Origin: Octopus sinensis
Lineage: Eukaryota
DNA length: 64,000 bases
Direction of reading: 5' to 3'
Assembly: GCF_006345805.1 (NCBI RefSeq)
Contig: NC_043003.1
Span: 112,716,001-112,780,000, forward strand
Position numbers and translations under genes: made by a program. Under the pieces are notes generated by a model that did not search any database, was not told where the DNA came from, and saw only the letters and a program-made list of their open reading frames with translations. Position 1 is the first letter of the stretch. Each line of letters opens with the position of its first letter. Shown here piece by piece: positions 5,320-60,430 of this stretch.

Positions 5320-5775
5320 TCATTCCCAACCTCGTAGTCCTAAGTTTAGTCTCACTGCGTAGCATTTTGAGGAGCTGTCGCCTACTACAGCCTCAGGCCG
5401 GCGAAGGCCATATGAGTGTATTTGGTAAACGGAAACTGAGAGAAACCCATCGTATATGTGTGTTTGTGTTGGGTGGAGGTGCGCGCTTGTGAGTGTGCGC
5501 GTATGTTTGTGTGCGTGTGCGCGCATGTGTGTATCTGTGTGTGTGCGTATCTATGTGTGTGTGCATTTGTGTTTGTGTTCGTCCACCACTGCTAGCCAAA
5601 TAGTGGTTACTTGATTGCATCCCTGTAACTTAGCGGTTGGGCAAAAGAGAGCGATATAATTAGTACCAGGCTTTAAAAAATGTGATCTAGGATCGATTTG
5701 TTCGACTAAAATACATCAAGGTAGGGCTTCTTCAGCATGGCTGCAATCCAGTGACTGAGACAAGAAAAAAATAGA
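5320..5775 (+). mobile_element. Degenerate SINE, family B
   Basis: Collinear with 13799-14200: internal TG microsatellite, GTAACTTAGCGGTT, CAGCATGGC...GACTGAGACAAG tail. Confidence 0.75.
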
Positions 5776-39657: not shown

Positions 39658-40651
39658 CATACTTATGTATATATATATATATATATAATATATATAATAT
39701 ACATATATATATATATACATATATATATATACATATAAATATACATATATATATATATATATATGTGTGTATATACAATGTATACATATATACACGCACA
39801 CACGTGTGTGTGTGTGTGTGAGTGCGTGCATATGCGTGTATATAGAAAAGTACACTCCGATACATTACAGATGAAACTATAAATTAGTGTATGAATACAT
39901 GAAAATATATATATATGTATATACATGTATGTAAGTACGTATGCATGTATATGTATGCATATGTATGTGTATATATGCATGTGTTTATATATATGTATAT
40001 ATATATATATATGCATGTGTATATATGAATGTGCATATGTTTATAACAAGAATGTCCGGAATAATGATCTCTGTATTGCATTCGATATGGCTAGCAGTGA
40101 AAATGTCAAAGTTTGTTGTGCAACACTATTCAGTCTCCATATTAATAAGAGAAATAGCCTTAGAAATAATATTATTCATACATAAAGACCTCCATGATGT
40201 TTTGTCAGCTACTTTTTACATCTTAAAGCGACTTTGCCTCCTTCTCAAACTACACATGACAGTTACACAGTTTCCCCTGCAGCAGCCGAGGTGAGAGAAG
40301 TGCCTTTACATTCCGTACAGCCGTGAAGATCAATTTATATTTAAATGACGCATAGAATAACTGCATTTGTGGTTTTATTTCCTTGCATCCAAATCCAATT
40401 GAAATCGGTTATGGTTCTATGATAAACATTGAATTCTAATTTGTTGACTTTTCATTTGGTTGTTGTGTAACGATGTTACAACGGCGTTTCTCGCTTTAAG
40501 CAGTTTGTACAGCTCCATAAAATATTTGTAGATGGTCTCCGTGTATAAAATTGCTTTACTATTATTAATGCAATGAAAACAACCATTTTGATGAATGAAA
40601 ATCACTTCATTCCGGCTATACACATAAGTTCTAATATATGAGTGTGTGTGC

Positions 40652-40704
<53 letters not shown>

Positions 40705-40809
40705 CATACTACATACATTCCGGCTATACACGTATGTTCTAATATATGAGTGTGTGTGTGCGTATATATATATATACGTGTAGAATATACGTGTATAGCC
40801 GGAATGTAT

Positions 40810-41112
40810 GTCGCCATGGTTTCATCTACTCTACGTTTCGAAGGTGAAGGCGAGACGTATCTTCGATAGCTTTCGTAATACTTTTTTTCGTTCGGCTTAA
40901 CAGCCCTTCTCGTCTTGTTATTCTCCTTGTCCCTGTCTTTTACTGTTTATATTTTGTACTGTCGTTACTGTCCTGTTTTTGTAACCATTTTTACCCCTCT
41001 GCAAAAAGATCTCAAATTTTATTTGATTTGCATTTCGCAGGAAGGAAAGTTTTTATCGAAGAAACGTCTCGCCTTCACCTTCGAAACGTAGAGTAAATGA
41101 AACCATGGCGAC
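40810..41112. mobile_element. Fold-back element with ~58-bp inverted arms
   Basis: GTCGCCATGGTTTCATCTACTCTACGTTTCGAAGGTGAAGGCGAGACG (40810) and its near-perfect reverse complement at ~41065-41111. Confidence 0.75.
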
Positions 41113-41403
41113 TGAAGAAAGGGTGTTTTCCTTGTGTTATTTGTCCTGTACTCTATATTTTTTTGTTGTTTAAGAAAAATGTCCAGTTCCTTGGGTTTGT
41201 GTCTATGTTTTCGTTTCTCATTGTGTTCGACGTTCTTTTGGTGTCCTGTACTCATATATGCGTGTATATATACATGTAGAGGTAGGTACGTACATATATG
41301 TATATATATATGCATATGTTTTATTTATTAATATATATATATATAAATACATACATACATACATTCCGGCTATACGCGTATGTTCTAATATATGAGTGTG
41401 TGC

Positions 41404-41442
<39 letters not shown>

Positions 41443-41552
41443 GATACATGCATGCATGCATGCATGCATACACACACACACATACATACATACATATATA
41501 CATACATACATACATACATACATACACACACACACATACATACATACATACA

Positions 41553-41585
<33 letters not shown>

Positions 41586-42255
41586 GGCGCCTGCTTGTTA
41601 AGCTCTGGTAAAACTTTGAAAAACTACGATCAGATCGAATTGAACTGAAATTTAAATGGTCTCCAGTTGAAATATATTACTGCCAATATACCGTGATTAA
41701 ATATTACCTTTACATCGAGCAACTATTTCACAGTTATTAGGAATTTTCCGACGTGAAATGATCAAAGTCGAGTCACCACGTGGTTGAGTAAATAAATATA
41801 AATTGATATCTACTTTTGACTGTACTTTTCTCAGAGAAATTTCGGTCGTTCAGATTCCAGCTTCTCCAAACCGAACGTTTGTATGCAATTTTGTACATTG
41901 CTAAAATATCCAAAAAAAAACTTTTGTGGAACTTCAAGTTCGTTTACAATTTCGAGAGCGTATCATGTAGATCATATTATTGAATCTATGTAAGTACACG
42001 TGGAACCGGAGAGAATTTTCTTTTGTTTTAATTGGCCGGTCTAAAGTAAGAGAAACAAATATTTTTTTATTCTTTCTTTTTTCTTACTACCTAAATATAT
42101 GCTGATAATTTTTATTCCAATTATCACGTGTCGGGTGTCAGATTGAATTTTTATCGCTGCCTCTGAGTTGTGTCTTTATTCCTATTTACGCTTACGTTGA
42201 TCAATTCCCCTTCCCTTTCCGTCTTTCTTATCTAGTTTTCCTCTTTCTCTTTCTC

Positions 42256-42304
<49 letters not shown>

Positions 42305-43367
42305 ATTTATACGTTCGTTGACCTTTCTTTATCCACATCGATCCTTCTATCTCTTCATTTCTATTTTTGTCGATTTGTCTATTTTTCTCATTATCACGTT
42401 TTCGGTCTTTGTCTCCACATTTCGTTTTACATCTCTCTCTCTCTCAAACTCTCTCTCTGTGTCTCTCTGTCTCTCTCTTTATCTATCTCTATCACTCCTT
42501 TTCTCTCTCTACTTTTTCTTGACTACCTTTCCATCCTTCTCTCTCTCTCTCTCTATCTCTCTTCCCCTCTCTCTTCATACCTGCCTCTACTTCTTCCTAC
42601 CCTCTCTCTCTCCGTATCTCAGCAACATGGACCTTGGCAGAGCCAACTACACTAAAGACAGCATAACCTTTAAAATGCAAAGAAACCGGCAGTTTCAAGT
42701 AATAAAAACAATGCTCCTTGAATGGAACTTAGCAGAAGGGTCACTACCGAGCAATTTAATTGCAAAGACCTTGAAGAGTTGTCTTTTCACAGGACCATGG
42801 CTCAGATCGAAAGGAAAATTGAATGAATGAATTCATTCATATGCCTTGATTAAACGACACATTGATTTATTGGACAATATATTCAAAGGGGAGATAAAAC
42901 ACAAAAAGGCAAAAAAGAAACCTGTGACTTCAATGGAATCAGAGAAAGGTCAGGATGATACTGTGAGAGAGGAACACGAGGAAATGTGAGCCCAAGGAGT
43001 ACAACATCAACAAAGCAAAAGTTCACCAGGAAAAAACAGAAAAGGCTAAATATGAAAATGAAAGCACAATGAAATGAACTGAGGATGTGCAAAGATCCAA
43101 GGTAAGCGCAAAAACAAAAAGGAGTTGAACTTGCGAAAACAAAGTGTCCGAAGAAAGAAAGCTTAAACAGTCCGTAAATTTTATACAAAGGGTAGCTGCT
43201 GGCATGAAGATATTAGAGCTGCAGATTTTCTCGTCTCAAGCCCCACATGAGTGGTACTCGTTTTGCTTAACCCGAGGCCAGGGAGAACTCTTCCAGAGAA
43301 GACAAACACTTCTAACACGATCAACACGGAAACAAAACACCAATCTTTCACTTTGAAATATGTAGAT

Positions 43368-43568
43368 CAGTGGTTTTCAACCAGGGTTCCGCCAGTACTG
43401 TCCAGGGGTTCCGCAAGAAGTTACAAAACTGCTAAAATCGGCAGTAATTTTTAATTCTCCTGTGCAGATATGTGTGCATAAAACTATAAAATTATTGCAC
43501 AGGGGTTCCTCGAGCCAGTGGAATGTTTCCTTGGGGTTCCGCTCCAGCAAAAAGTTTGAAAAGTACTG
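43368..43568. mobile_element. hAT (Charlie-like) MITE, 201 bp
   Basis: TIRs CAGTGGTTTTCAACC / GTTTGAAAAGTACTG. Perfect 8-bp TSD ATGTAGAT on both sides. Confidence 0.92.
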
Positions 43569-44044
43569 ATGTAGATGGTCAACGTACTGCGCTAAAGTGG
43601 ATACAATATGTAGACGCAGTGCGAGCAACCGTTGCTGAACAGCGGTCCTTTTGGAAATGGCAGAGAGGGTTGTAAGGCAGCTGACCGTAAGCGTTTCAAC
43701 GATAACTAACACCCCGTGTTCTCGGCATTGCATACATATGCACATTTATAAGAGAGGGAAAGAAAAAGACAGAGAAAGAGATGTAGAGCGAACAGCTTTC
43801 CTTTCAAAACGAATTGTATTGAAAATAACGAAGTCTTTTGTCTTAAATATTATTCATATATTCATATTTGTGTGTGCGCATATATGTATATTGATATATG
43901 TATTACGCATGTATGTACGTATGTTTGTACGTATGTATGGTTGTATGTATGTTTGTAAGTATGTATGTATGTATGTGCAGATTTGTATGCTTTATGTATG
44001 TATTCTCATGCATATATTTGCATATCTAGACACGCTCATATATA

Positions 44045-44600
44045 TTTAAAAGATAAACGTCTGGAAAGTTTGACAAACTTTTACAGTTCCAGTGATGGAT
44101 TGGATCTGTAGTCTTCGAATAAGCTTTCTCCTTTCTGGTTCTGAGAAGCCTAATTTCTCAAGATTGGTATTTAGGCAGCATATTACATATCCCAGGGCCC
44201 CAATAACTACTGGTATAAACCTGAACTTGTAATCAGGATCGATTAACTGTAGATTTCTCAATAGTTCAGCATAAGTGTTCTCTTTTTCACTGATCTTCAG
44301 TTTTATATTAACATCCGCTGGGCAGCTAATTTCCACAGTTTCTCTTCGCTATCCCAAACCATTATATCAGATATGTTGTGCTTACATTTTATTGAGGTCT
44401 TCACTGGTACATTCTACCAGTATTTATTTTTATTATGAGTGGCTATGGCTTCTACCATATTGTGGGTACCTATTTATTTGTCCGCGGGATTATCCTTCCG
44501 ACGGATTTCATTATAGAGTGCCCTAGCTACAACGTCATGTCTCATCGGTAAATAATACCGTGATGACATTTTCAGACAGCTGCTTATGATATGGGTGACA
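44045..44600 (-). mobile_element. RLE-type (R4/Dong-like) LINE fragment
   Basis: THIISSCLKMSSRYYLPMRHDVVAR, EISCPADVN, FIPVVIGALG and LQIQSITGTVK. Confidence 0.85.
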
Positions 44601-44724
44601 GACAAACTGACAGATAGACGGACAGACAGACACACAGACAGGCACGCAGACACACAGACATATAAGCAGACACACAGACAGACATACAAACAGATACACA
44701 AGACACATACGCAGACAGACACAC

Positions 44725-44824
<100 letters not shown>

Positions 44825-46626
44825 TACCTAATACATTATAAATGTAATACGTAGAGTATTTTCATCTAATACTGTTTCAGGTGTGTATCTTAACTTAAGA
44901 CTCAGTGATTTATGAAAGACATACATTAATTGCGTACCATGAGAGCACAGAAAATATAGTTCAATAATAAAAACAGGGCGGCAACCCTTTCTTCGTCATT
45001 TGTAGACAAGTATACTCTTATACATATTCATATCTCTACATATATTCTGATGTTATGTCTTTCGAGTTATAACAATATCTTCCTCATGGTTAAGATATAT
45101 TCTTACTTACCAGAAAACCAGAAGCCATATTATCTATACCCTTTGTTTACTATACGTTCACTTAGTTACATAACATATATAAGACACACTTGAAAATAAA
45201 GATCAGATGTGGAATAAGAATTTTATTGAATTTCGTATATTCTATGACAGCATTTTTCATTTACACTGATTTTCTATGGACTGCTTATCTCTTTCATTTT
45301 GGAATTTGCTTAGCATCTTTCATGCGGATTACCACGCACGCTATTCCTCAGTTTCGTAACTTCGAGCTTATTCGTTAGAGAAGATTGACATTTTTATTTT
45401 TAGTGACATATACTGACTTTCTAAATGTTAATCTGATTATTATATAACAGTTAACGTGCTACAAGAACTAAGCTCCTGGTGCTGCCAGAGACGAAACACT
45501 TGGTTTTATTGCTGCATAACAAGGTGAACTGGAAATACTCTTTCCAGTTCAAGTCACTTTACTAATGCCTACGAATGGAATCAATGGTTTTCTTTTTCAA
45601 GCATTTTCTTCTTCTGTCTTCTCCATCTTGAGGTAGCAGCTTTGTAAAGGATCGATTTTTGAGACGTGGCATACAACTGACCATACGTACCACTGACTAC
45701 GCATACAATAGATTATGCATATATCTGAGCATTCATACAATTTATAGTACACACAAGAGAGTGCATACCTTTGTGTCTGTGTGTGTGTGGGGGTGAGTTT
45801 GTGCGTGTGAAAATACACTACACAACAGGTTACACGTACAATGTGTAATACAATTTACCATACATACAATTGTCTGTTTATGCATAAGACTTATGTAAAT
45901 AGTTTGTTATACATAAATATGTCGTTACGTACTATTCTCTATACAGACAATTGGCTATCATCATAATAGTCTACTTAGTATCTTAACCGAACATTGCCTT
46001 CCCCCCACACACACACCGCCACCACCACAGCCTTCTAAAGGTTTCTGTCATGTCCTTTTATTCCTTTTCACTTGGTTTCATGTTGCCCATATCGTCTTCA
46101 ATTCTTTTGTCTTCTAATCTCCGTCTGACGATCATCCATGACCCCTTTCTAGGCACAATCAATCCAGGACTACATTGTCTCACGCGATCCCCTTCCTTAA
46201 ACTAAAGACTATGATCTGGCAGTTATTTCTAGGTACAACACAGGGAGTTGTCTTTTCCTTACTAAAGGTGTTGTAAAGAACCATATTCTTGCTCAGGTAA
46301 GACAGCAAGGCAGTATCGATTTTTAGATGAAGATGATTCTGTCTAGCACTATTTTTGGCAAATACATGTGTTGAAAGGGTATATTGTTCTCGATTGAAAA
46401 ATACAAGGCATTGCACCTAGTTTTTAAAGAAACTGATATTGAACTTATTGTTGCGATTTATAAGGCAAAGAAGTGTGCTCAATGGTTTGTTCGTTGTGTT
46501 TTTGTGGGGTTTTTTAATTTTGTTTTTTTTGTTTTTACGGCTGCTTGACCTGTCGTCAACGTTCTCCGCCCGAATTCTATTAGGATTCACTTAAAATAAG
46601 TTGAAAATAGGTACCACTAGTTGCTG

Positions 46627-46658
<32 letters not shown>

Positions 46659-47013
46659 GGTGGTGGTGGTGGTGGTGGTGGCGGCGGTAGCGGCGGTGTT
46701 GAAAGCTATATCAATCGTGAATGGAAAGAAATATTACCAAAGCCCTTCCAGCCGTGACTATCCTGTATTTTTATGGGTATACCTTGGACTACATTTTACA
46801 ATCTATCCTCTTTTAAGATTGTAGTCATCGATCTGAAAGAGAGATTTTACTGGTATTTCTAGCAAGTAGATCAGTTGCCTTGAGAATATCACCTTTGTTG
46901 TAGATAACAAGATTGATAGTATAGTTATCGACTTCAAGCCTGACTTTTGTTCGTAAACCATTAGAGATAAAACATTTATTTTCAAGTTTCTAAAAACCTG
47001 TCAATAGTAGTTA

Positions 47014-47408
47014 TCTCTATATATAAAAGTCAAGTTGTGTGTCTGTCTCCTACGATTTAGATTCCTAACTACTCCCACATTTTGCGGTGCAGTTTAACCA
47101 AAACCGGGTATCTTATAGTCGTGCTTCATATCGAGCCCTTCTGGGTATTAGCGCGCGTCTACAATGAGTCTACGATTTAAAAGAAAATTTACCACCATTT
47201 TTTCCCATTTTAATGCATTTCTTCGCTATTATATAAGGGAAGTAACTCTCTAAAAATGTCTACGATGAGTCAACGATTTTTAAAAAATTACCATCACTTT
47301 TTTTCCATTTTTAATGCATATTTTTGCTATTTTTGGCTATAACTCTCTAAAAATGCTTATATAGTTATTTCCCTTACAAACCCGAGCAACGCCGGGCGAT
47401 ACTGCTAG
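47014..47408 (+). mobile_element. Non-autonomous Helitron-like element
   Basis: A|TCTCTATATATAAAAG...CCCGAGCAACGCCGGGCGATACTGCTAG|T. Close copy at 59706-60077. Confidence 0.8.
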
Positions 47409-47601
47409 TTTCTAATTAAAAAAAAGATATCTTTGTGTGAAACTGTCGTAACGTTTAACGAGGGTAGGTTTCGTAATTCGACCAATACGTTACAAATTAT
47501 TTGTTTCTGTATCCACACTTCCTCGCAGCTTCTCTTTTACATAAGATCTCAAAAATGCTACTAGGGAACGTGCTATTTCTTAATCATGCTTAGTGGACTC
47601 C

Positions 47602-48260
47602 GAAGTCAGGTGATACAGCAGTTTTTCCGCCGATGCTGGACGATTCTCGTCTGCTTCTATGCACTAAACATCCATACAAGAGACTTTCTCAGATGAATTT
47701 TGCAGTATTACGGCACTCTTATAAAACATCCAAGTTAAGTAGGATTTAAAGCCTGTCATTCGGTAATAACACTGCCTCCGTTGCTTGCAGTTGATTTTTA
47801 TCCGGCCTCAAATGAAGGAAGAAATTAATAACATTCGGTGCTGCTGCTGACGAAGTGCAAATCAAACAGAAATCACGTGTTACAGCAGTTCTGCCGCCGA
47901 TTGTGGACTGTTTATGTCTACTCTCAATATCGCTGTGCTTCTATGCACTAAATTTCTATACGAGACACTTTCTGGGGGTGAATTTTGCAGTATTACGCCG
48001 CGCTTATTAAACGTCCAAGTTAAGTAGGATTTAGAGTCTGACATTCGGTAAAAACACTGCCTCCGTTGCTAATATTTGATTAATACCCAGCCAGCCTTTA
48101 GTGACACCAGTGACTGACTAGTCGCTGTTTTTCTGTATATCGGGGGAATGGATAACAGAACAGAAAGCGTTGCTAATGTATGCTACTGCTGATGAGGCGC
48201 AAAACACGCTAAAATCACGCGTTACAGCAGTTCAACCATATATGCTGGATGATTCTGGTC
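47602..48260 (+). repeat. Tandem array of 267- and 342-bp units delimited by hammerhead motifs (retrozyme-like)
   Basis: TACAGCAGTT starts at 47614, 47881 and 48223. Units share CTTCTATGCACTAAA, GAATTTTGCAGTATTACG and CAAGTTAAGTAGGATTTA. Junctions read CTGCTG-CTGACGA..GAAA-TCACGTGT-TA-CAGCAG and CTACTG-CTGATGA-GGCG..CGCT-AAAA-TCACGCGT-TA-CAGCAG. Confidence 0.75.
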
Positions 48261-48266
48261 TGTTAC

Positions 48267-48590
48267 TGTTATGGCAAGAATCATGACACCACTTCTAAGA
48301 ATGGACTTGCTGAACTCGCATAAGTAGCAGCGTTTTTGACTGAGAGCGACAGCTGAGAAATCGCAGGAAGTAGAAAGGTGTCGTTTGTGAGTACGTGGAG
48401 TCGCAAGAAATTGTTGAGAAGTTGTTATAGTTCGTTGAGAGTTGTTTTGGATTGGTTACAGTTGTTGGCAGAGTATTTGGGGAATACATCAAGTGGAGAC
48501 AATTGGTTCCTACCCCGTTCCTTGGTACTCTATACATCACACTGTATTAGTGCACAACACTAAAGGGACATATATAGAAACTACGTTACA
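48267..48590 (+). repeat. 5' LTR of the Gypsy element
   Basis: TGTT...GTTACA followed by a PBS-like TGGCGAC at 48595. The start may instead be 48261. Confidence 0.7.
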
Positions 48591-48594
48591 AAAG

Positions 48595-51000
48595 TGGCGA
48601 CAAGTGATTCGAAGCTTACGTTGGTCATTAACAATTTTTTATGATATAAAAAATTCGTTAATTATGGAAGACCTATTAGTTGGCATATTACAGTAGCAAA
48701 AGCAGCAGCAACAGCAGCAACAGGGGTTGCGCCAACAACTACAACAGCAACAACTACAACAAAATCAGTTGCTGGAACTGCTGCTGCTGAAGTCGGAAAA
48801 CACTGCAAGTTCGCTTTCGCCAGAAGGCGTAGCGAATGCTATAACTGAATTTAGTTATAACCCAGAAAAGGGTATAACTTTTTCGGTGTGCTTGAGAAAA
48901 TACGAAAAAATCCAAAGAAAAATGCAAGTGTTGGACAGTCGATGAAAAAGAGAGACTAGTGTTACGGAAACTAGGTCCTTCAGAACATGAAAAATACGGC
49001 AATTTTATCTTGCTTAAAAAAACAAATGAAATTTATTTCGAGGAAACAATTGAATTGCTATCCCAAATGTTCAGCGATAAGAATTCCCTGTTTAACACTC
49101 GCTGGGAGTATTTGAACCTAATAAAAGAAGAGGACGAATATTTTGTCAGTTACGCTGGAATCGTAAATGAAATGTGCGAAAAGTTTTAACTAAAGGTATT
49201 ATCTTCAGACAGATGCAGAAACACGTGCATGGACTTTTACAAAACTAGTACAGGAGGACCAGAATTTAAATCCGCAGGCAGTACCAGGGGAATGTCACAG
49301 TATTATCAACTTGCAGCAAGACAAGTGAAAATTGAAGAAAAAAAATTTCTCTCAAGTACAGACACGTCGACCAGAAAGAAATAATGAAAAAAGAATGTTA
49401 CGATCGAATCCATGGTATGGTTGTGGAGGTCTGCATTTCAAGAAAGACTGTCCATTTAAAACACGGGAATGTTTAAGTTGTCAAAAAATAGGACCTAAAA
49501 TATCGAACTACATAGCGAAGCAAAAAAGAGCCGAAAAAAATTCTTCTTAAAATGTTTGCTCAACTGAAAGTCGTGACGACACCCAAAGAAGAAAGTATGT
49601 GTATGTAAAAATATACAACCCGAACGTGAAGCTACGACTAGACACAGGTAGCGACATTACAATTATTGATACCGACACGTATCATGGGAGTTCTCCATAA
49701 ATCTGTTCTGTAAAAACATTAATGATTGTTCCTCTAGTAAAAAGTAGGCGTCAGATGAATTGAAGAAAAACATTTTTAATGCTTTTCCTGAAGTGTCGGA
49801 TTGATTAGGTTTATGTAATAAGATTGAGGCATGTTTCCAAAAGTAAGGAAAACACGATACCAGTGTTCAAACCAAAAAGAACGGTACCTTTTGCTGCGAT
49901 AAAACATGTCGATGAAGAATTAGACAGATTAGAGAAATTTAGAGTCATCCAAAAAGTGGAATATGCAAAATAGGCAGCTCCAACGGTGTCTATTAGAAAA
50001 AGGATAACAATATCAGGATGTGTGCCGGTTTTTCCACTGGCTTGAATGGATGTCTAAAAACGTGTCACTCTCCGCTACCTATTCCGGAGGATAATTTTGC
50101 GAAGTTACACGGGGGCGGGGCATGATATTTTCAAAACTGGATCCGTCTGATGCGAACCTACAAATTAGAGTAGATGAGAAATGCTCAAGATACCTAATGT
50201 AATAGATTACCATTTGGTCTAAAGTTTGCACCTGCAATTTTTCAACAGGTTATGGTTGCAATGTTAGCGGACTGTGAATTCGCAATTCCATAGCTGGATG
50301 ATATATTAATTAAAAGTGAATATCTTGATCGTCATGTCGAGCATGTAAATATGCTTTTGAAAAAATAAAAGATTACGGTCTTACACAGAATGAGGAAAAA
50401 TGTGAATTTTGTCTGACCTAAAATTAAGTATTTAGGACAAATTATTGACACGAAAGAACGAGGGAAGACGCAATTAAAAGTATGTCTCCTAATTCTAGCA
50501 AATTATTATAAAAATTAAAAGATGCAGCACGAAGCTTTGTCAGTGAACAGGTCTCAAAGCGACGAAAACATTTTGACAAATTAAATTTAAATGTTGAAGT
50601 GAATCTAACGGTTTTGTATGTTTCTTAAATGGCTTTTAAAACACCTTCTATGCTGCAATTATTTTCGTTCCAGCACACGATCTCAGATCAAGTCACTCTC
50701 CGTAATTATAAAATTTATATACTAAATATGCATGAACTGAGAGCTCCACTAAATTATTTGCTAAAAGAAAGAATTTGAAGTGGTATGAGCCAAATAATTG
50801 TCAAAAGGCGTTTGACGATATTAAAAAAGTAGTAATATCGGATTTGCCGCTGGGTCATTTCGATCCTGCAGTGGAGATTATTGTAGTTTCTGATGCTTCT
50901 GAATACGGCAAAGGATCGTTAATGATACACAAATATAAAGACGGTAATATGAAGGCATTGGTTCATGCCTTACATTCTGTGATAGCGGCAAAGAAAAACT
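48595..51000 (+). mobile_element. Decayed Ty3/Gypsy (Mag-like) gag-pol, 3'-truncated
   Basis: Poly-Q gag start, ITEFSYNPEKG, LRKLGPSEHEKY, zinc knuckle GCGGLHFKKDC, protease LDTGSDITII, RT LPFGLKFAPAIFQ and *LDDILI, RNase H DASEYG. Many stops and frameshifts. Confidence 0.93.
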
Positions 51001-51139
51001 ATATAGATATTACATTAGTAGTGTTAAGAACAACCGTTATAGGAAGACTTTTTCGAGATTACTAAAAAAGTGAATCGTTCATATTTAATAATAAAATATC
51101 AATTCAACAACATTAGAAAACAATGTTTAATATATATTC

Positions 51140-51526
51140 GGATTTTTTCGGTTTGAATGGCAGTTTTTAACATAATTTCTAGGTAACTAAAACATTTTAA
51201 ACTTCGTATACTGGTAGAATGTGTTAATAACACATCTTTTTCTCTTGGCTTTATTGCGAAAATTCTATAGCTTGTAAGATATTTGTTGTCTTTTTTCTCT
51301 TCAATTTCTGCAATTTCAACCAATCAATGACGTCCATTGAGGTAAAAAAAAACATCTGTGCCGTATGAATATGTCCCTCGTTTAAGAAACAGATAGTGTT
51401 TACTTACCCCTAAACCTAACCCTATAACAGATAGAAATGCAATAAATCGATACTAGGGTCATAATTATGGGTGACAATTTCATATGACACCGCTAGAAAA
51501 AACTGCCGTTCAAACCGAAAAGATCC
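51140..51526. mobile_element. MITE with ~29-bp TIRs
   Basis: GGATTTTTTCGGTTTGAATGGCAGTTTTT / AAAAACTGCCGTTCAAACCGAAAAGATCC, flanked by ATATTC on both sides. Confidence 0.85.
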
Positions 51527-51847
51527 ATATTCTCTTATAATTTTCAACATGCTGCAATTTACTACAATAGCTATTTATATTTATGTGTATGTTTGTGTTG
51601 GCTATTTGTGTATGTATGAGTATATGTGAAGACGTGTGTGTGTATATACGTAGGCAAATGTAAGTCTGTGCAGATAGACGAATTTAAATGGGCCCTTACA
51701 ATGCTAAATGAATGCATATATAAACAACTTACTTATAAGAAATATACTTCTGTATATTTCTATGTAAAAATGTGCTGGTGCAATGCATTATACACACACA
51801 CACACACATAATACATATATAACACTATATATATATATATGTATATA

Positions 51848-51884
<37 letters not shown>

Positions 51885-51905
51885 GTATATATATATATAT
51901 GTATT

Positions 51906-51937
<32 letters not shown>

Positions 51938-51999
51938 ATATATATATAACACACATATATATATATAACATATATACACATATATACACATATATATAT

Positions 52000-52037
<38 letters not shown>

Positions 52038-52220
52038 GCATATATATGTGTGCGTGTATGAATGTGTGTGTGATTCTATACATGTATATATGTGCATGTA
52101 TATAATAGGAGAGGGAAAAGGTACAAGAGAGAGCATGTTTGTGAGCGGTATGCATGTAAATGAAATATGATCGATCAATAGATAGATAGATAGATAGATA
52201 GATGGATAGATGGATAGATG

Positions 52221-52273
<53 letters not shown>

Positions 52274-52968
52274 GATTGCTTTGCAACATTTTGCAACGCA
52301 GACGTCTGACAAGCTAATGGAAGTAATAAAGGTAGAAGTAAAACAATGTAGCCATTTGATGTCATTGAATGTCTCTGGAAACTACAGCAAAGGATGCTGG
52401 TAACTTCACTGTTTGAGTCGACTTCACAAATGATGCGGCAAGCAATATTCCTCTGCACTTTAGCTATTTGCTTTCTCTGACCTTAAAACTAAATTACATA
52501 TACGTGTGCGTTTGTGTATGAGCGTGTGTATGCATGTTCGTGTATGTGTGTGGGTATGTGGGTGTGCGTGTTCGTGCATGCATGTATGCGTACAAGTGTG
52601 GCTGGATGACAATGTTGGCGTGTCTTTATGTCGCAGTGCATGTGTATTTGTAGCACTCAATACTGTATATATGTACGTCCTGCTGTAGCCCTGCTTCTAT
52701 ATGCTTAACGTACAGACATATGGATGTGTATATTGTATGTTATATATGTATATCTTTACGCGTGTGTACGTGAGTGAATATGAATATGTACGCGTGTGTG
52801 TATAGTGTGTGTATACATACATACATACATACATATATATGTATGTATGTATATATATGTGTATATATATATATATATATGTATTGTATATATGTATGTA
52901 TATATATATATATGTATATATGTATATGTATGTATATATGTATATGTATGTATATATGTATATGTATG

Positions 52969-52999
<31 letters not shown>

Positions 53000-53015
53000 G
53001 TATGTATATATTATA

Positions 53016-53094
<79 letters not shown>

Positions 53095-54001
53095 CAAAGG
53101 GCGAGAGTGATTGTAAAAGTTTCTTTCCATTTTACATTTTATGTATTATACACATGCATTTATAGTCACATTTATATATGTATGTGTAAACACTTGTCTG
53201 ATTTTATATACACACGCGCGCGATCACACAAACACACACAGATATTTATGTATGTATGTATGTATGTATGTATATATGTATCTATGTATCTATGTATCTA
53301 TGTATGTGTATATATAACTATATATTTATTTGCTTTTACTTCGGCGCATTCATTTGTATCGATGTGTGTTTCCGTACGTGAATGACTGAATGACGGAGTG
53401 TCCATCTATTGGTATTTGTTCATTCGTCGCAGCGAATATGTAATATATTTGTAATTCTCCGTAGACATTGTTTTATACGCAGTTTCTAGCACGAACGAAA
53501 ACGGATTCCCATCAACGTGAACTCGTCACTTACATAGCTTCGTGGTTGCAGTTTTAACGTAGGTTCTATTCCTAATTAAGCTATTTTTGTTCATGTATTC
53601 GTTCTGATTACCATTTTAGACCTTTAGACTTCTACGTTACAGTTATAAGCTTGCAGAGAAGGTGCCACGTAGTGGGATTGAACCCAGAATCGTGTGGTTG
53701 ATATGTATGCTTCTTACCATACCGCCAGCCTACGTCTTTATAAACTAATTGCTTAGTTTGTTTTGTTTGATTGGAGATTTTTTCCATATTGGCGCATGTC
53801 CACAACTGATAGAGGAATAATCGAATAAATTAATCCTGGTATTTGACTTCTATTAATTTTTATCGCCCCCAAATGATGACAGGCAAAATCGATCCGGGTG
53901 GGATTTGAAATCAAAACATAAAGACAAGTAACACATTGTGCCGATTCTTCAAACCGTCTTCCTTTCATATCTGTGATATTTATATATTCTTTAGGAATAT
54001 A

Positions 54002-54210
54002 TGAGCTGGCAGAATCGTTAGTACGCCAGGCAAACCGCATTGCAGCATTTCGTCCGTCTTTACGTTCTGAGTTCAAATTCCACCGAGGTTGACTTTACCA
54101 TTCATCCTTTAGGGGTCGGTAAAATAAATACCTGTCGAATACTGGGATTCATGTAATCGACTCACCCATATCCCCAAAATTGCTGGCCTAGTACCAAACT
54201 TTGAAACCAA
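54002..54210 (+). mobile_element. SINE family A (alternative tail)
   Basis: GAGCTGGCAGAATCGTTAG head, tail GGCCTAGTACCAAACTTTGAAACC. Confidence 0.85.
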
Positions 54211-54255
54211 CATTTTAATCCTGTTTTGGGCGGCGAGCTGGCAGAATCATTAGCA

Positions 54256-54825
54256 AGCCATTGGGATATCTGAAGAAATCACGGCTTGCAAAGCGCAAAG
54301 ACGTGGTATGAGCAAACTCCAGAAGTAGTCACCGAGAATGAAAATTGCAAAATCTTGTGGGGTACAATGATTTAGAACAATAACCTGACCAGACATCGGA
54401 AACCGGACATATTGAGGTGAATAAAAAAGAAAGAACATACTTGTTAATCGACATAGCATGTCCCGATGACAACAAGGTCGAAGAGAAAGAAGAAAAACTG
54501 AACAGCTACAACAATTTGAAGTGGGAAATACGAAGGTTGGAGTCAATGAGAGTAGACGTGATACCAATAGTAGTTGGCTTACTTAGAATTATCAGCACTC
54601 AACTACTAACATGGCTCAAAAAGATTGGTACAAACGTAAAGGTAGAACACCGACAGAAATTAGCATTGCAGCATTGCTTTGAACTGCAAGAATTCTTCGC
54701 AAGGTTCTTGAGATATAACCATTAAACAAGTGTCACAGTCTACTGGCTGTAGACAGCTGACACTTTCCATTATACCCAACAAAATAAGCAGAGAGTTTTC
54801 ATCAAATAATAACAAAAATAATATC
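54256..54825 (+). mobile_element. RLE-type LINE 3' fragment
   Basis: LLIDIACPDDNKV..EKL..Y..LKWEIRRL..VIPIVVGLL, ending in AATAATAAC. Confidence 0.8.
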
Positions 54826-54839
54826 AACATTTGGTAGTT

Positions 54840-55220
54840 TAAGGCAAATTTCTAATGCATCACCTGCTACACCTCCGTGTTGCTGGGGTGTGTGCAGAAC
54901 TGTATTTCCTTTTTTGTTGATGGAGGAGTGCAAACTCTTCTCGTTATTGTATTGCGTGAGTTTGTTTTGTTATAAGGTTTGGTTGCAGTCTTTTGTTGTA
55001 TTAGTGTTTGTATTGTGTTGTGTGTGTAATGCCAATGTTTATTCTTTTCTGCTGAGTAACAAGCCTGTTGGTGGCCGTTTATTTTATTGGATATTTGCTA
55101 TATAGTGTGACTTGTGTTTGTGGATTTCCTTTTGTTTGCATTGTATTATTGAATTGATAGTATCTTCCGAAGAATGCGGGCTGTTGCTGTCAGGGCTATT
55201 ATTTGGATAGTGTTCTTATT
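54840..55220 (-). mobile_element. RLE-type LINE extreme 3' end plus UTR
   Basis: Minus strand IQIIALTATARILRKILSIQ*, preceded by (TAA)n. Confidence 0.65.
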
Positions 55221-55959
55221 ATTATTATTATTATTATTATTTGAGTTTAGATTCCGTCGAGGTCGACTTTTCCCTTCATCCTTTCGGGGTCGGTAAAATA
55301 AATACCAGTTGAGCACTTGTTGTTGTTGTTGCTGTTGTTATTTCTCTCGAAGTAAATATCTTTAAATAACCCAGAGTTTATACCCAGAAAGTTTCTCAAT
55401 AGAAGAAGAATTTTTGAGCTAAAGAATAACCAAGAGGTCATCCATTATAAGCCAAAGTTCTTTCATAAAGGTATATTCGAACTGGGCGATTTCTAGAACA
55501 TTTGCATGTTAACAAACCAATGCTTGGAGAACAGAATGAGTTTATACACAATAATTTATGAAAAGGATGGTACTGGATAATGCAAACATGCTGTAGGGGA
55601 AACCATTGCGTTGGACTGATTACAAAATAGCGCCTGCTTCGATTTTCCATTAAGGTGGAAGGATCAGCCTTCTTTTACCATATTATTTTCAATAATGATT
55701 GCCTATTATAAGCAGGAAATTATCCAAACTTTAAGGTCTTCGTAGAGCCAATGATGATGGAAAATTATAAGCAGGAAATAATGTAAGCTTGACAGTCTTC
55801 CTATAGCCAAATAATTTAGTGATATTAATAAGGCAATCTTTAAGTTGGATAAATGAGAGAGAGAGTTTGTGTGAGAGAGAGTGAGAGAAAGAGAGGTGCA
55901 ATTTCAAACCTTGGAATTATTACACTGATATCACAATTGTACATACTCAATTAACCAGT

Positions 55960-56280
55960 CTATATAGATAGATAAGTTCGCTTCCGAACCATCTGGTTTG
56001 GGGTTCAGCACCACTATGCGGAACCTTGGACAAGTATCTTCTATCATAACCACGAGCCGACTAATGTCTTGTGAATGGATTTGCTGGACAAAAACTGCTA
56101 CTTTCACACCCCTAAGCAGCCGGTGTTGTTTTGCTTACATCCTCGTAAAAAGAGATCAATACAATGAATATACAAGATTTAAAAGGACTGGGGTAGACCG
56201 ATTTGTCCAATTCACTCTGCAAGGAGTTGCTCCAGCATGACATGGCTGCATTCCAGTAACTGAAACAAGTAAAAAGAGTA
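55960..56280 (+). mobile_element. Degenerate SINE family B
   Basis: GGGTTCAGCACCACTATGCGG head, GCTCCAGCATG...ACTGAAACAAGTAAAAAGAG tail. Confidence 0.7.
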
Positions 56281-59059: not shown

Positions 59060-60430
59060 ATTGTGATGGTTTCTCCATGAGACAGAGATTAAGATCCATT
59101 TTGCCTTGTTTTTTTTTAGGGAATTTTATTTCTGAAGGAGTAATTTTAGTTCTACCTGTGCCCGTAATATTTTCGTCTTCCGATATAAAATGGGATATTC
59201 AGTTTAACACGAGATGGGTAGCAAGAACTTAAAATCTAGGTATTGGTTTATGTCGATTTCCTTACAACAGAGATCAGCTGCAACAGTTTCATTTAAAATA
59301 TCCAAAACTGTAGATTTACTTCCATTCATTGCTACAGAGTTACTGGACTAATTTATGGATGCAATTTTTTTTTAATTTAAGGATTCCCGTCAGTCTTCTT
59401 TACGTCTGATTCAAAATATGAAGCAGTCATCTGGACATCTTTCTTAGTTTTCTTCAAATGAAAATGCTGATCAAAAGTAATGCAAGATCGGGCAAATGCA
59501 GCTGCAATATTCGTGCCTATGGCCGAACCTTTATTTCAAGGTATTATTTGGAATCAAAGTAGCGGTTTTTTTTTAGTACTTATCCTTCTATTATAAACTC
59601 CCGAGAGATTCTTTGTGAATATCTCCTACATTCTGTGTAAGTATACTTATACTTAGAAACCTAATTCATTTTTTGTTTACCGGACTGTTATGTCGGAACT
59701 ATATATTTATATATAAAAGTGAGGTCTGTCTCCTACGATTTAGATTCCTAACTACTCCCACATTTTGCGGTGCAGTTTAACCAAAACCGGGTATCTTATA
59801 GTCGTGATTCATATCGAGCCCTTCTGGGTATTAGCGCGCGTCTACGATGAGTCTACGATTTAAAAAAAAATTTACCATCAATTTTTCCCATTTTTAATGC
59901 ATTTTTGGCATATATAAGGGAAGTAACTCTCTAAAAATTTATTATTAAATCTCAGAACGTAACACCCCCCCCTTTGTGATTAGCCATATTGAGATGGCTA
60001 TTATACTTTACACCTCTAAAAATGCTTATATAGTTATTTCCCTTACAAACCCGAGCAACGCCGGGCGATACTGCTAGTTCTCTATATTCACGCTTTCTGA
60101 AACGTGATTTTGGAAGTGCATTTCACCTTTGATGAAACAAGAAACGAATTTGTGTAATGGTTTCAAAATTATGTCTGGTAAACTGCTTATTGGTTGAGAT
60201 ATTGTTGTTCGTCCTGCAACAATTGGACATAATTTGAAATCAAACAGTTTGAGAATCTTTGCATTCGGTGTACGAAATTATTTTTAAGATGTTATGCATT
60301 TCTTTAAATTTATGAATTTCCAATTGTGTGTGAAAGTTACATGTTGTACCTCAAAATTAGGTAGCCTATGTTCTTTTCCGTTGAATTGTTGTTAGATTGA
60401 TTTGTTGATATACCAATTGTCGATATTTAC
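59060..60430 (-). mobile_element. Decayed Penelope-like element reverse transcriptase, split by a Helitron-like insertion
   Basis: Minus-strand motifs in correct order: AKILK (~PKIHK), LCPIVAG (~LRPIVAG), GSAIGT (~GTAMGT), PDDCF (~YLDDCF), YLD (~PFLD), YRK. Confidence 0.7.
59706..60077 (+). mobile_element. Non-autonomous Helitron-like element
   Basis: Close copy of 47014-47408 with the same hairpin-CTAG|T end. Confidence 0.8.

Follow-up and report, generated by a model that had tools for sequence, protein, structure and literature searches.

A decayed tandem array in the Octopus sinensis genome represents an old family of retrozymes with predicted hammerheads, likely copied into DNA by a Penelope-type enzyme

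Organization of the array and neighboring elements

The window, meaning the whole stretch of DNA analyzed here, covers 64 kb of a 2.72 Gb genome. We identified in it, on the plus strand, an array of head-to-tail units of 267, 342, and 42 nt, with a junction start-to-start spacing of 267 and 342 nt. Each unit junction coincides with the predicted cleavage position of a type I hammerhead, with CAGCAG directly after TA. The original prediction had described 2 full units and a partial one, boundaries between TA and CAGCAG, and a different set of lesions at each junction, and all of these agree with the sequence in letters, positions, and spacing. Junction 1 (47585..47621) is a remnant of a type I hammerhead, reading GAAG-TCAGGTGA-TA at 47602-47615, with cleavage predicted after 47615. 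It is followed by unit 1 (47616..47882, 267 nt; profile score 188 bits), which corresponds to the 340-nt family unit minus 17 and 57 nt and includes an approximate "tail" segment at 47762..47801, mapped from model positions 161-200. Junction 2 (47841..47888) reads GAAA-TCACGTGT-TA at 47869-47882, with cleavage predicted after 47882, and leads into unit 2 (47883..48224, 342 nt; 272 bits), a full-length family unit with its tail segment at approximately 48047..48086, between the 2 preferred arm ends of the family. Junction 3 (48183..48230) reads AAAA-TCACGCGT-TA at 48211-48224, with cleavage predicted after 48224, and the start of unit 3 (48225..48266, 42 nt) is ended by a long terminal repeat (LTR).

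The unit-profile match in the window begins at 47597, and family-like sequence seems to start slightly 5' of the array as first predicted, at ~47585 (CATGC-TTAGTGGA), judging from a by-eye match to family copies. Units 1 and 2 share 75% identity over 224 nt, and their alignment has gaps of 17, 1, and 57 nt, with unit 1 the shorter; the 267-nt size is therefore a deletion product and not a second natural unit size. The longest ATG open reading frames (ORFs) in the circularized window units are 38 and 58 aa. A search of the window, including the sequence beyond the LTR element, recovered neither the remainder of unit 3 nor an inverted second arm upstream of the array.

A strict type I descriptor (6-bp stem I, CUGAnGA, GAAA, UH) had 1 match in the window, at junction 2, and 0 matches in 100 shuffled windows. 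An Rfam scan of 40000-56000 returned no hammerhead at E≤1, and a narrower scan returned HH9 only, at 13.3 bits (E=6), well below its gathering score of 52. The array was also missed by Tandem Repeats Finder. Minimum free energy folding of single junctions did not yield the hammerhead fold, which is expected and not informative. Families of this kind, once decayed, escape both Rfam thresholds and tandem-repeat scans.

The array is interrupted, as had been proposed, by a later LTR retrotransposon, which we take to be of the Gypsy type. Its 5' LTR lies at 48267..48590 on the plus strand. Next come a PBS-like TGGCGAC and an internal region, decayed and extending to ~51065, with an RT_RNaseH_2 domain at 50736-51062; the 3' LTR of the element was not found in the window. 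This LTR belongs to a family with many copies that are 80-90% like the window copy. The LTR element does not target the retrozyme: of 30 LTR loci, only 1, that of the window itself, adjoins the repeat. Upstream of the array, a younger, high-copy insertion at 47012..47418 (plus strand) ends in a 3' hairpin plus CTAG, presumably the hallmark of a Helitron, on which we base the label Helitron-like. It is missing in the ortholog of organism E, and nearly missing throughout that sequencing run, and it reaches very high depth in organisms B-D; it is a lineage-specific burst. Neither of these 2 elements belongs to the retrozyme.

Elsewhere in the window, a recurrent minimal hammerhead-like motif (CUGACGA, short stem II, GAAA) was observed on the minus strand from 58715, and also at locus L006 near 173, in another dispersed repeat. 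A short remnant resembling a Penelope-like reverse transcriptase (RT) region (31-35% identity over 52-57 aa, E about 1e-5) lies at 60086-60259 on the minus strand.

State of the window locus

None of the 3 window junctions carries an intact hammerhead. At junction 1, reading the family-like start as ~47585, ~26 nt are missing, comprising the 5' strand of stem I, CUGAUGA, and half of stem II, and A15.1 reads G. Junction 2 has an intact core and a stem I paired at 6 of 6 positions; its stem II pairs at 2 of 4, with A.A at 10.1-11.1, and its stem III contains a U.U mismatch. Junction 3 has the same kind of U.U mismatch in stem III and a change of G12 to A, G12 being essential for the hammerhead.

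The locus was identified, wholly or partly, in sequencing runs of 5 organisms, none of them listed as RNA; assembled contigs of 3 presumed RNA runs likewise gave no match, which speaks neither for nor against expression. In organism E, one contig spans the locus and reaches into the LTR; in this ortholog, 7 nt are deleted at 47883, so that junction 2 has lost the 3' strand of stem I. Over 47420-48266, which is mostly array, 77 of 822 letters of the ortholog are changed, vs. 24 of 312 letters in the flank (P=0.42); with divergence matching the flank rate, there is no sign of constraint on the array. The distance between the 2 window units is 0.26-0.28 substitutions per site vs. 0.08-0.10 to the ortholog, which makes the array ~3 times older than the lineage split, and the lineages sharing the locus are now ~9% apart. 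The order of events was the array, the LTR element, the lineage split, and the Helitron-like insertion. Given damage to all 3 hammerheads and drift at the flank rate, the window copy is probably dead. The suggestion that this locus produces circles of 270-340 nt was not borne out, with 3 damaged hammerheads, junction 2 lost in the ortholog, and the 267-nt size due to deletion; judged from the sequence, the array is a decayed, likely inactive genomic copy from which circular RNA output is no longer expected. The locus itself is ordinary mobile-element debris.

The repeat family in the genome

Family loci were collected by DNA-similarity searches, in each of which the best 20-40 candidates were scored, and by core-pattern searches, and overlaps were merged into 151 distinct loci. 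At least 145 loci (145 of the 151 distinct fetched loci), spread over many contigs, match a unit profile built from natural copies, and the locus is thus not single-copy. Intact family units are ~337-370 nt long with a GC content of 0.36-0.45, are non-coding, and have no LTR of their own, the LTR beside the window array being an unrelated later insertion. The tree of 67 near-full units has 3 star-like clades, with the window units as sister tips in clade A. Measured outside CpG sites, units of clade A lie at a median distance of 21% from the column majority, those of clade B at 15%, and those of clade C at 13%; clade A is also the most heterogeneous of the 3.

The exact core pattern had 70 matches genome-wide vs. 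0 for a reversed control, with at least 6 of the 70 belonging to a different, young family with a 475-nt unit. Of 98 full-span hammerheads recovered by DNA similarity, just 3 satisfy this exact pattern, and scaling the 70 matches by that rate gives a loose estimate of ~2,000-2,300 hammerhead copies genome-wide. The full consensus of the original prediction, used as an exact pattern, had 0 matches, probably due to CpG decay and subfamily differences.

A genome-wide search for younger arrays, as originally suggested, identified no young expansion of the family among the best 20-40 candidates per DNA search; among these candidates, other loci match family units at 65-89% identity, with the higher values on short stretches only. 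Near-identical neighboring units on long branches were identified at L208/L217 (G000:C25, about 5653522-5654239) and at L228-L230 (G000:C30), the latter including L230. L208/L217 was considered as a young insertion, its neighboring units being 98% identical, and was set aside on the grounds that local duplication explains the pair equally well, with the nearest other locus at 77% identity and a long branch. These loci are recent local duplications or conversions of old copies, or rare young insertions. At L208, 2 hammerheads in succession have intact cores. Of 4 natural monomers folded as circles, only that of L208 folds better than shuffles (z score of -3.0, vs. -0.2 and -0.4 for the window units and +1.7 for L061), decay eroding the folding.

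The young 475-nt retrozyme family was identified at L207 (G000:C19:51235500-51240500), L209, L210, L191, and L194, with units that are 94-99% identical. It forms 2-armed arrays, with TA repeats at both ends of L207, and has the TCACGTGA stem III hammerhead in common with the window family, but has no profile match to the unit body or tail of the latter. Further, L183, L186, L188, and L190 have hammerheads with the TCACGTGA stem III and little or no match to the window family's unit, with L183 located in a decayed repeat of about 470 nt. There are thus further lineages of the clade of ribozymes with this stem III, and the 475-nt family is better material for expression tests than the old window family.

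Hammerhead motif across the family

We analyzed covariation in an alignment of 45 of 51 full-span copies, 6 having been dropped for indels, truncation, or mis-anchoring; 4 of the 45 had been found by the core pattern. Pairing in these 45 copies is 83% for stem I, 79% for stem II, and 91% for stem III, vs. 25-44% for slid partners. Changes on both sides of a pair were counted in 79 cells vs. 35 in shuffles, with 0 of 500 shuffles reaching 79, a count that relatedness and CpG decay on both stem strands can inflate. The stem I strands differ between subfamilies yet pair in each, as CTGCTG/CAGCAG, CTGTTG/CAACAG, CTCCCA/TGGGAG, and CCATCA/TGGTGG. At pair 10.1-11.1, 9 copies have A opposite U and no copy has A opposite C. 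The stem III sequence, TCACGTGA, is palindromic, and the cleavage site is occupied by A or C. A putative distal extension of stem I, 56% paired vs. 70% for a 3-bp alternative, is weakly supported.

Core columns are 80-100% conserved vs. medians of 68-85% in the unit body. Among full-span copies, the whole core is present in 20 of 52, and core plus stems pass in 7 of 52; L033, L036, L040, and L022 are examples of loci with intact natural hammerheads. Across the family, CUGAnGA and GAAA are retained, and the stems pair and covary.

Insertion footprint of the family

The 3' ends of the arms cluster at 2 sites, ~160 and ~200 nt past the cleavage position and ~40 nt apart. With model positions counted from just after the cleavage position, and with end windows that were set after viewing the first data, 41 of 126 arms end at positions 140-168 and 52 of 126 at positions 180-210, where ~11 each would be expected if ends were uniform; the 2 end windows together hold 93 of the 126 arms vs. 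~22 expected. In a set of 55 loci fetched later, after the end windows had been fixed and with a looser gap allowed in chaining, the same windows contain the ends of 52 of 77 arms. The segment between the 2 sites, a 40-nt tail, is the stretch best conserved between the 3 subfamilies: at model positions 161-200, 33 of 40 columns agree in all 3 clades, the 2 highest bins of the unit.

Back-to-back arms with their 3' ends outward were identified in 24 of 92 loci. In 12 of these 24 two-armed loci the ends are split between the 2 sites, in 1 they share a site, and in 11 one of them lies outside the windows; of the 7 two-armed loci in the later set, 2 have one end per site and 5 have an end beyond the windows. 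A microsatellite lies beyond the end in 31 of 92 loci vs. 33 of 270 control flanks (P=1e-5). The same footprint was found in 3 subfamilies of different ages.

The arms are 5'-truncated. A junction is crossed by 73 of 126 arms, and 75 of 201 exceed 350 nt, with 11 arms longer than 600 nt, which makes the template a circle or an uncut multimer rather than a cut linear monomer. In 26 of 34 pairs, the inverted arms at a locus resemble each other more than they resemble loci of the same clade, and tandem segments are likewise closer within a locus in 56 of 85 pairs, the pairs being non-independent in both counts; copying from a shared template would produce such closeness. By eye, the 5' ends do not accumulate exactly at the cleavage site, and several of them fall inside the hammerhead, as though reverse transcription stalled at that point. 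Inversion junctions inside the hammerhead were also observed at L007:1582-1630, centered on the stem III palindrome, and at L009:1654-1739. This Penelope-like footprint can be seen in the family but not in the window copy, which has no inverted arm and whose 3' end is hidden by the LTR.

Penelope-like elements in the genome

The genome encodes ORFs of 780-883 aa with RT plus GIY-YIG domains. We searched 42 Penelope-region loci (30 + 12) for an autonomous Penelope element sharing the unit, the tail, or the hammerhead of the family, and none was found in this sample, which is narrow, with 22 of the first 30 loci in one cluster and mostly one young family. Most tblastn matches in this partner search were short spurious ORFs of other repeats and were discarded. 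No RT or GIY-YIG ORF was found in the units of the window family. One Penelope-region locus, L255, has near 5520 (plus strand) a minimal type I hammerhead-like motif with a palindromic stem III (CTCGAG), near a 775-aa ORF.

Discussion

We put at roughly 85% the probability that the window array, decayed and likely inactive, belongs to an old, dispersed, non-coding repeat family with units of 340-370 nt joined by predicted type I hammerheads, likely copied into DNA by a Penelope-type reverse transcriptase. The original prediction, that the array is an old copy from a non-coding tandem family with type I hammerheads at the unit boundaries, thus stands, the family being multi-copy, its stems covarying, and the window junctions damaged. 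The prediction of a possibly undescribed retrozyme family stands for the family only, which is new; the kind itself is known, and the window array represents a new, old family of animal non-LTR retrozymes. In the active era, transcripts would have been cut at the junctions into monomers and probably then circularized, as the covariation and the known retrozymes suggest. A Penelope-like RT/GIY-YIG protein may have bound the conserved 40-nt segment between the 2 end sites and cut AT-rich DNA, one or both ends of which would then have served as primers for reverse transcription of a circle or of an uncut multimer. This course does not depend on a circle, as uncut RNA was the main template in vitro in the main text of PMC11167929.

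Several other explanations were weighed. A chance likeness to the hammerhead inside an ordinary satellite or SINE-like repeat would fit the Rfam score, which is far under threshold; it has a negligible probability in view of the 70 exact core matches against 0 in the control, the compensatory stems across subfamilies, and the conservation of the core columns above that of the body, and it is effectively refuted by the covariation and the genome-wide core pattern. The repeats might also be pseudo-LTR fragments, i.e., 5'-truncated copies, of an autonomous Penelope-like element, with no independent non-coding parasite, which would suit an insertion footprint that is the same as that of Penelope elements, the RT plus GIY-YIG ORFs in the genome, and the type I hammerheads borne by Penelope pseudo-LTRs, described as related to retrozymes in the main text of 10.64898/2026.07.22.740005. 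We consider this origin improbable, given that the units close on themselves with no ORF between junctions, with 11 arms exceeding 600 nt and short reading frames in the circularized window units, that a full-length Penelope ORF match was identified in only 1 of 151 family loci and lies >1 kb from the repeat there, and that the unit profile has no match in the 42 Penelope-region loci.

For the tandem form of the window locus, local DNA duplication of a monomer or 1.5-mer insertion is the alternative to reverse transcription round a circle or multimer. Such a process occurs in the family, as at L217/L208 and L230, the window units are sister tips with a shared stem, and the stem III lesion is common to junctions 2 and 3 and absent from junction 1. 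Yet the window units are 24% apart, near the median of 27% for same-locus pairs, so that any duplication here would be about as old as the family burst; moreover, the many arms crossing a junction speak against it, as does the mutual closeness (in non-independent pairs) of inverted same-locus arms, since inverted arms are something that unequal crossover cannot make. We regard local duplication as unlikely to be the origin of the tandem form, to which it may have contributed; it concerns the growth of the array and not the identity of the family, and it is compatible with the explanation we favor. The locus might, finally, still yield linear or circular RNA through cutting at junction 2, perhaps as a dimer through the near-palindromic stem III, and possibly be co-opted. 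Junction 2 does have all core nucleotides and a complete stem I, and salamander hammerheads with a weak stem III work as dimers (main text of PMC7229834). However, a circle requires 2 cuts and junctions 1 and 3 lack core elements, junction 2 itself has no 10.1-11.1 pair and is deleted in the ortholog, and the divergence equals that of the flank, which leaves continued activity very improbable.

Within the favored reading, a retrozyme copied by a Penelope-type enzyme, we tentatively propose a more specific course of events, with the odds somewhat against it. The enzyme may have copied a single retrozyme RNA circle from 2 start points simultaneously, with the 2 ends of a broken TA-rich target each priming one of them. 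The 40-nt segment between these points would be the recognition signal by which retrozymes borrow the enzyme, held by selection across 3 successive subfamilies while the ribozyme stems changed compensatorily. If true, this would name a short, testable cis element for an unproven step in the spread of animal retrozymes. The return of retrozymes into DNA is still inferred, with the published support for Penelope in the main texts covered here consisting of co-occurrence and pseudo-LTR similarity. The old family described here has the Penelope tail-and-inversion footprint directly, and its 40-nt segment is a candidate signal for enzyme binding and priming.

Comparison with known systems

Non-LTR retrozymes have been described from coral, mussel, and axolotl, with Penelope elements named as candidate helpers (Cervera and de la Peña 2020, PMC7229834, main text). 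As far as that main text goes, the octopus family resembles them in having non-coding tandem units within 150-450 bp (350-390 bp in mussel), a GC content <50%, one type I hammerhead per unit, no LTR and apparently no PBS or PPT, numerous copies scattered over the genome, and the presence of Penelope elements alongside. Such retrozymes are further characterized by self-cleaving transcripts, linear and circular monomer RNAs, a highly self-paired monomer, and, where present, target-site duplications longer than 4 bp; the flanks of the octopus family are old and rich in microsatellites. Unlike the described retrozymes, the window family is old and decayed, and its expression and circularization are putative. 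The fixed 3' ends, the conserved tail, and the 2-armed insertions are features of the window family for which no description was found in the main text of PMC7229834, which also has 0 mentions of octopus or cephalopods. Within a partial coverage of the literature, consisting of main texts, no work on cephalopod retrozymes or on tail or inversion ends of retrozymes was found.

In vertebrates, non-LTR retrozymes have been presented as derivatives of Penelope-like elements, a link drawn from co-occurrence and homology to the Penelope pseudo-LTR (pLTR), with cleavage in only 1 of 9 tested dimers (Li, Clavereau, and Pollet, 10.64898/2026.07.22.740005, main text). The octopus family is like those retrozymes in its tandem type I hammerhead repeats, in its mostly short arrays, and in its co-occurrence with Penelope elements. 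The link to Penelope differs, being in octopus the insertion footprint, with no homologous pLTR found in the 42 Penelope-region loci. By the rule that the main text of that work gives for active retrozymes, 2 consecutive complete hammerheads, the window locus fails, with 0 of 3 junctions intact.

For Penelope-like elements themselves, the Poseidon PAc protein of Anolis cuts both strands of AT-rich DNA, reverse transcription begins at 2 internal RNA sites bounding the genomic tail of 30-40 bp, and hammerhead cleavage is dispensable in vitro (PMC11167929, main text). Partial tandems, inverted 5'-truncated copies, a tail, and (TA)n targets have been described for Penelope-like elements in the main text of PMC8557442. 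To the extent covered by these 2 texts, the octopus family shares with Penelope-like elements the 2 end sites bounding a tail downstream of the hammerhead, 30-40 bp long in theirs and ~40 nt in the octopus family, along with AT-rich or microsatellite targets, 5' truncation, partial tandems, and an inverted 5'-truncated copy. It differs from the Penelope-like elements of these texts in its predicted hammerhead, with stems longer than those of the minimal Penelope type, and in a unit of 340-370 nt that has no RT or GIY-YIG ORF and closes on itself.
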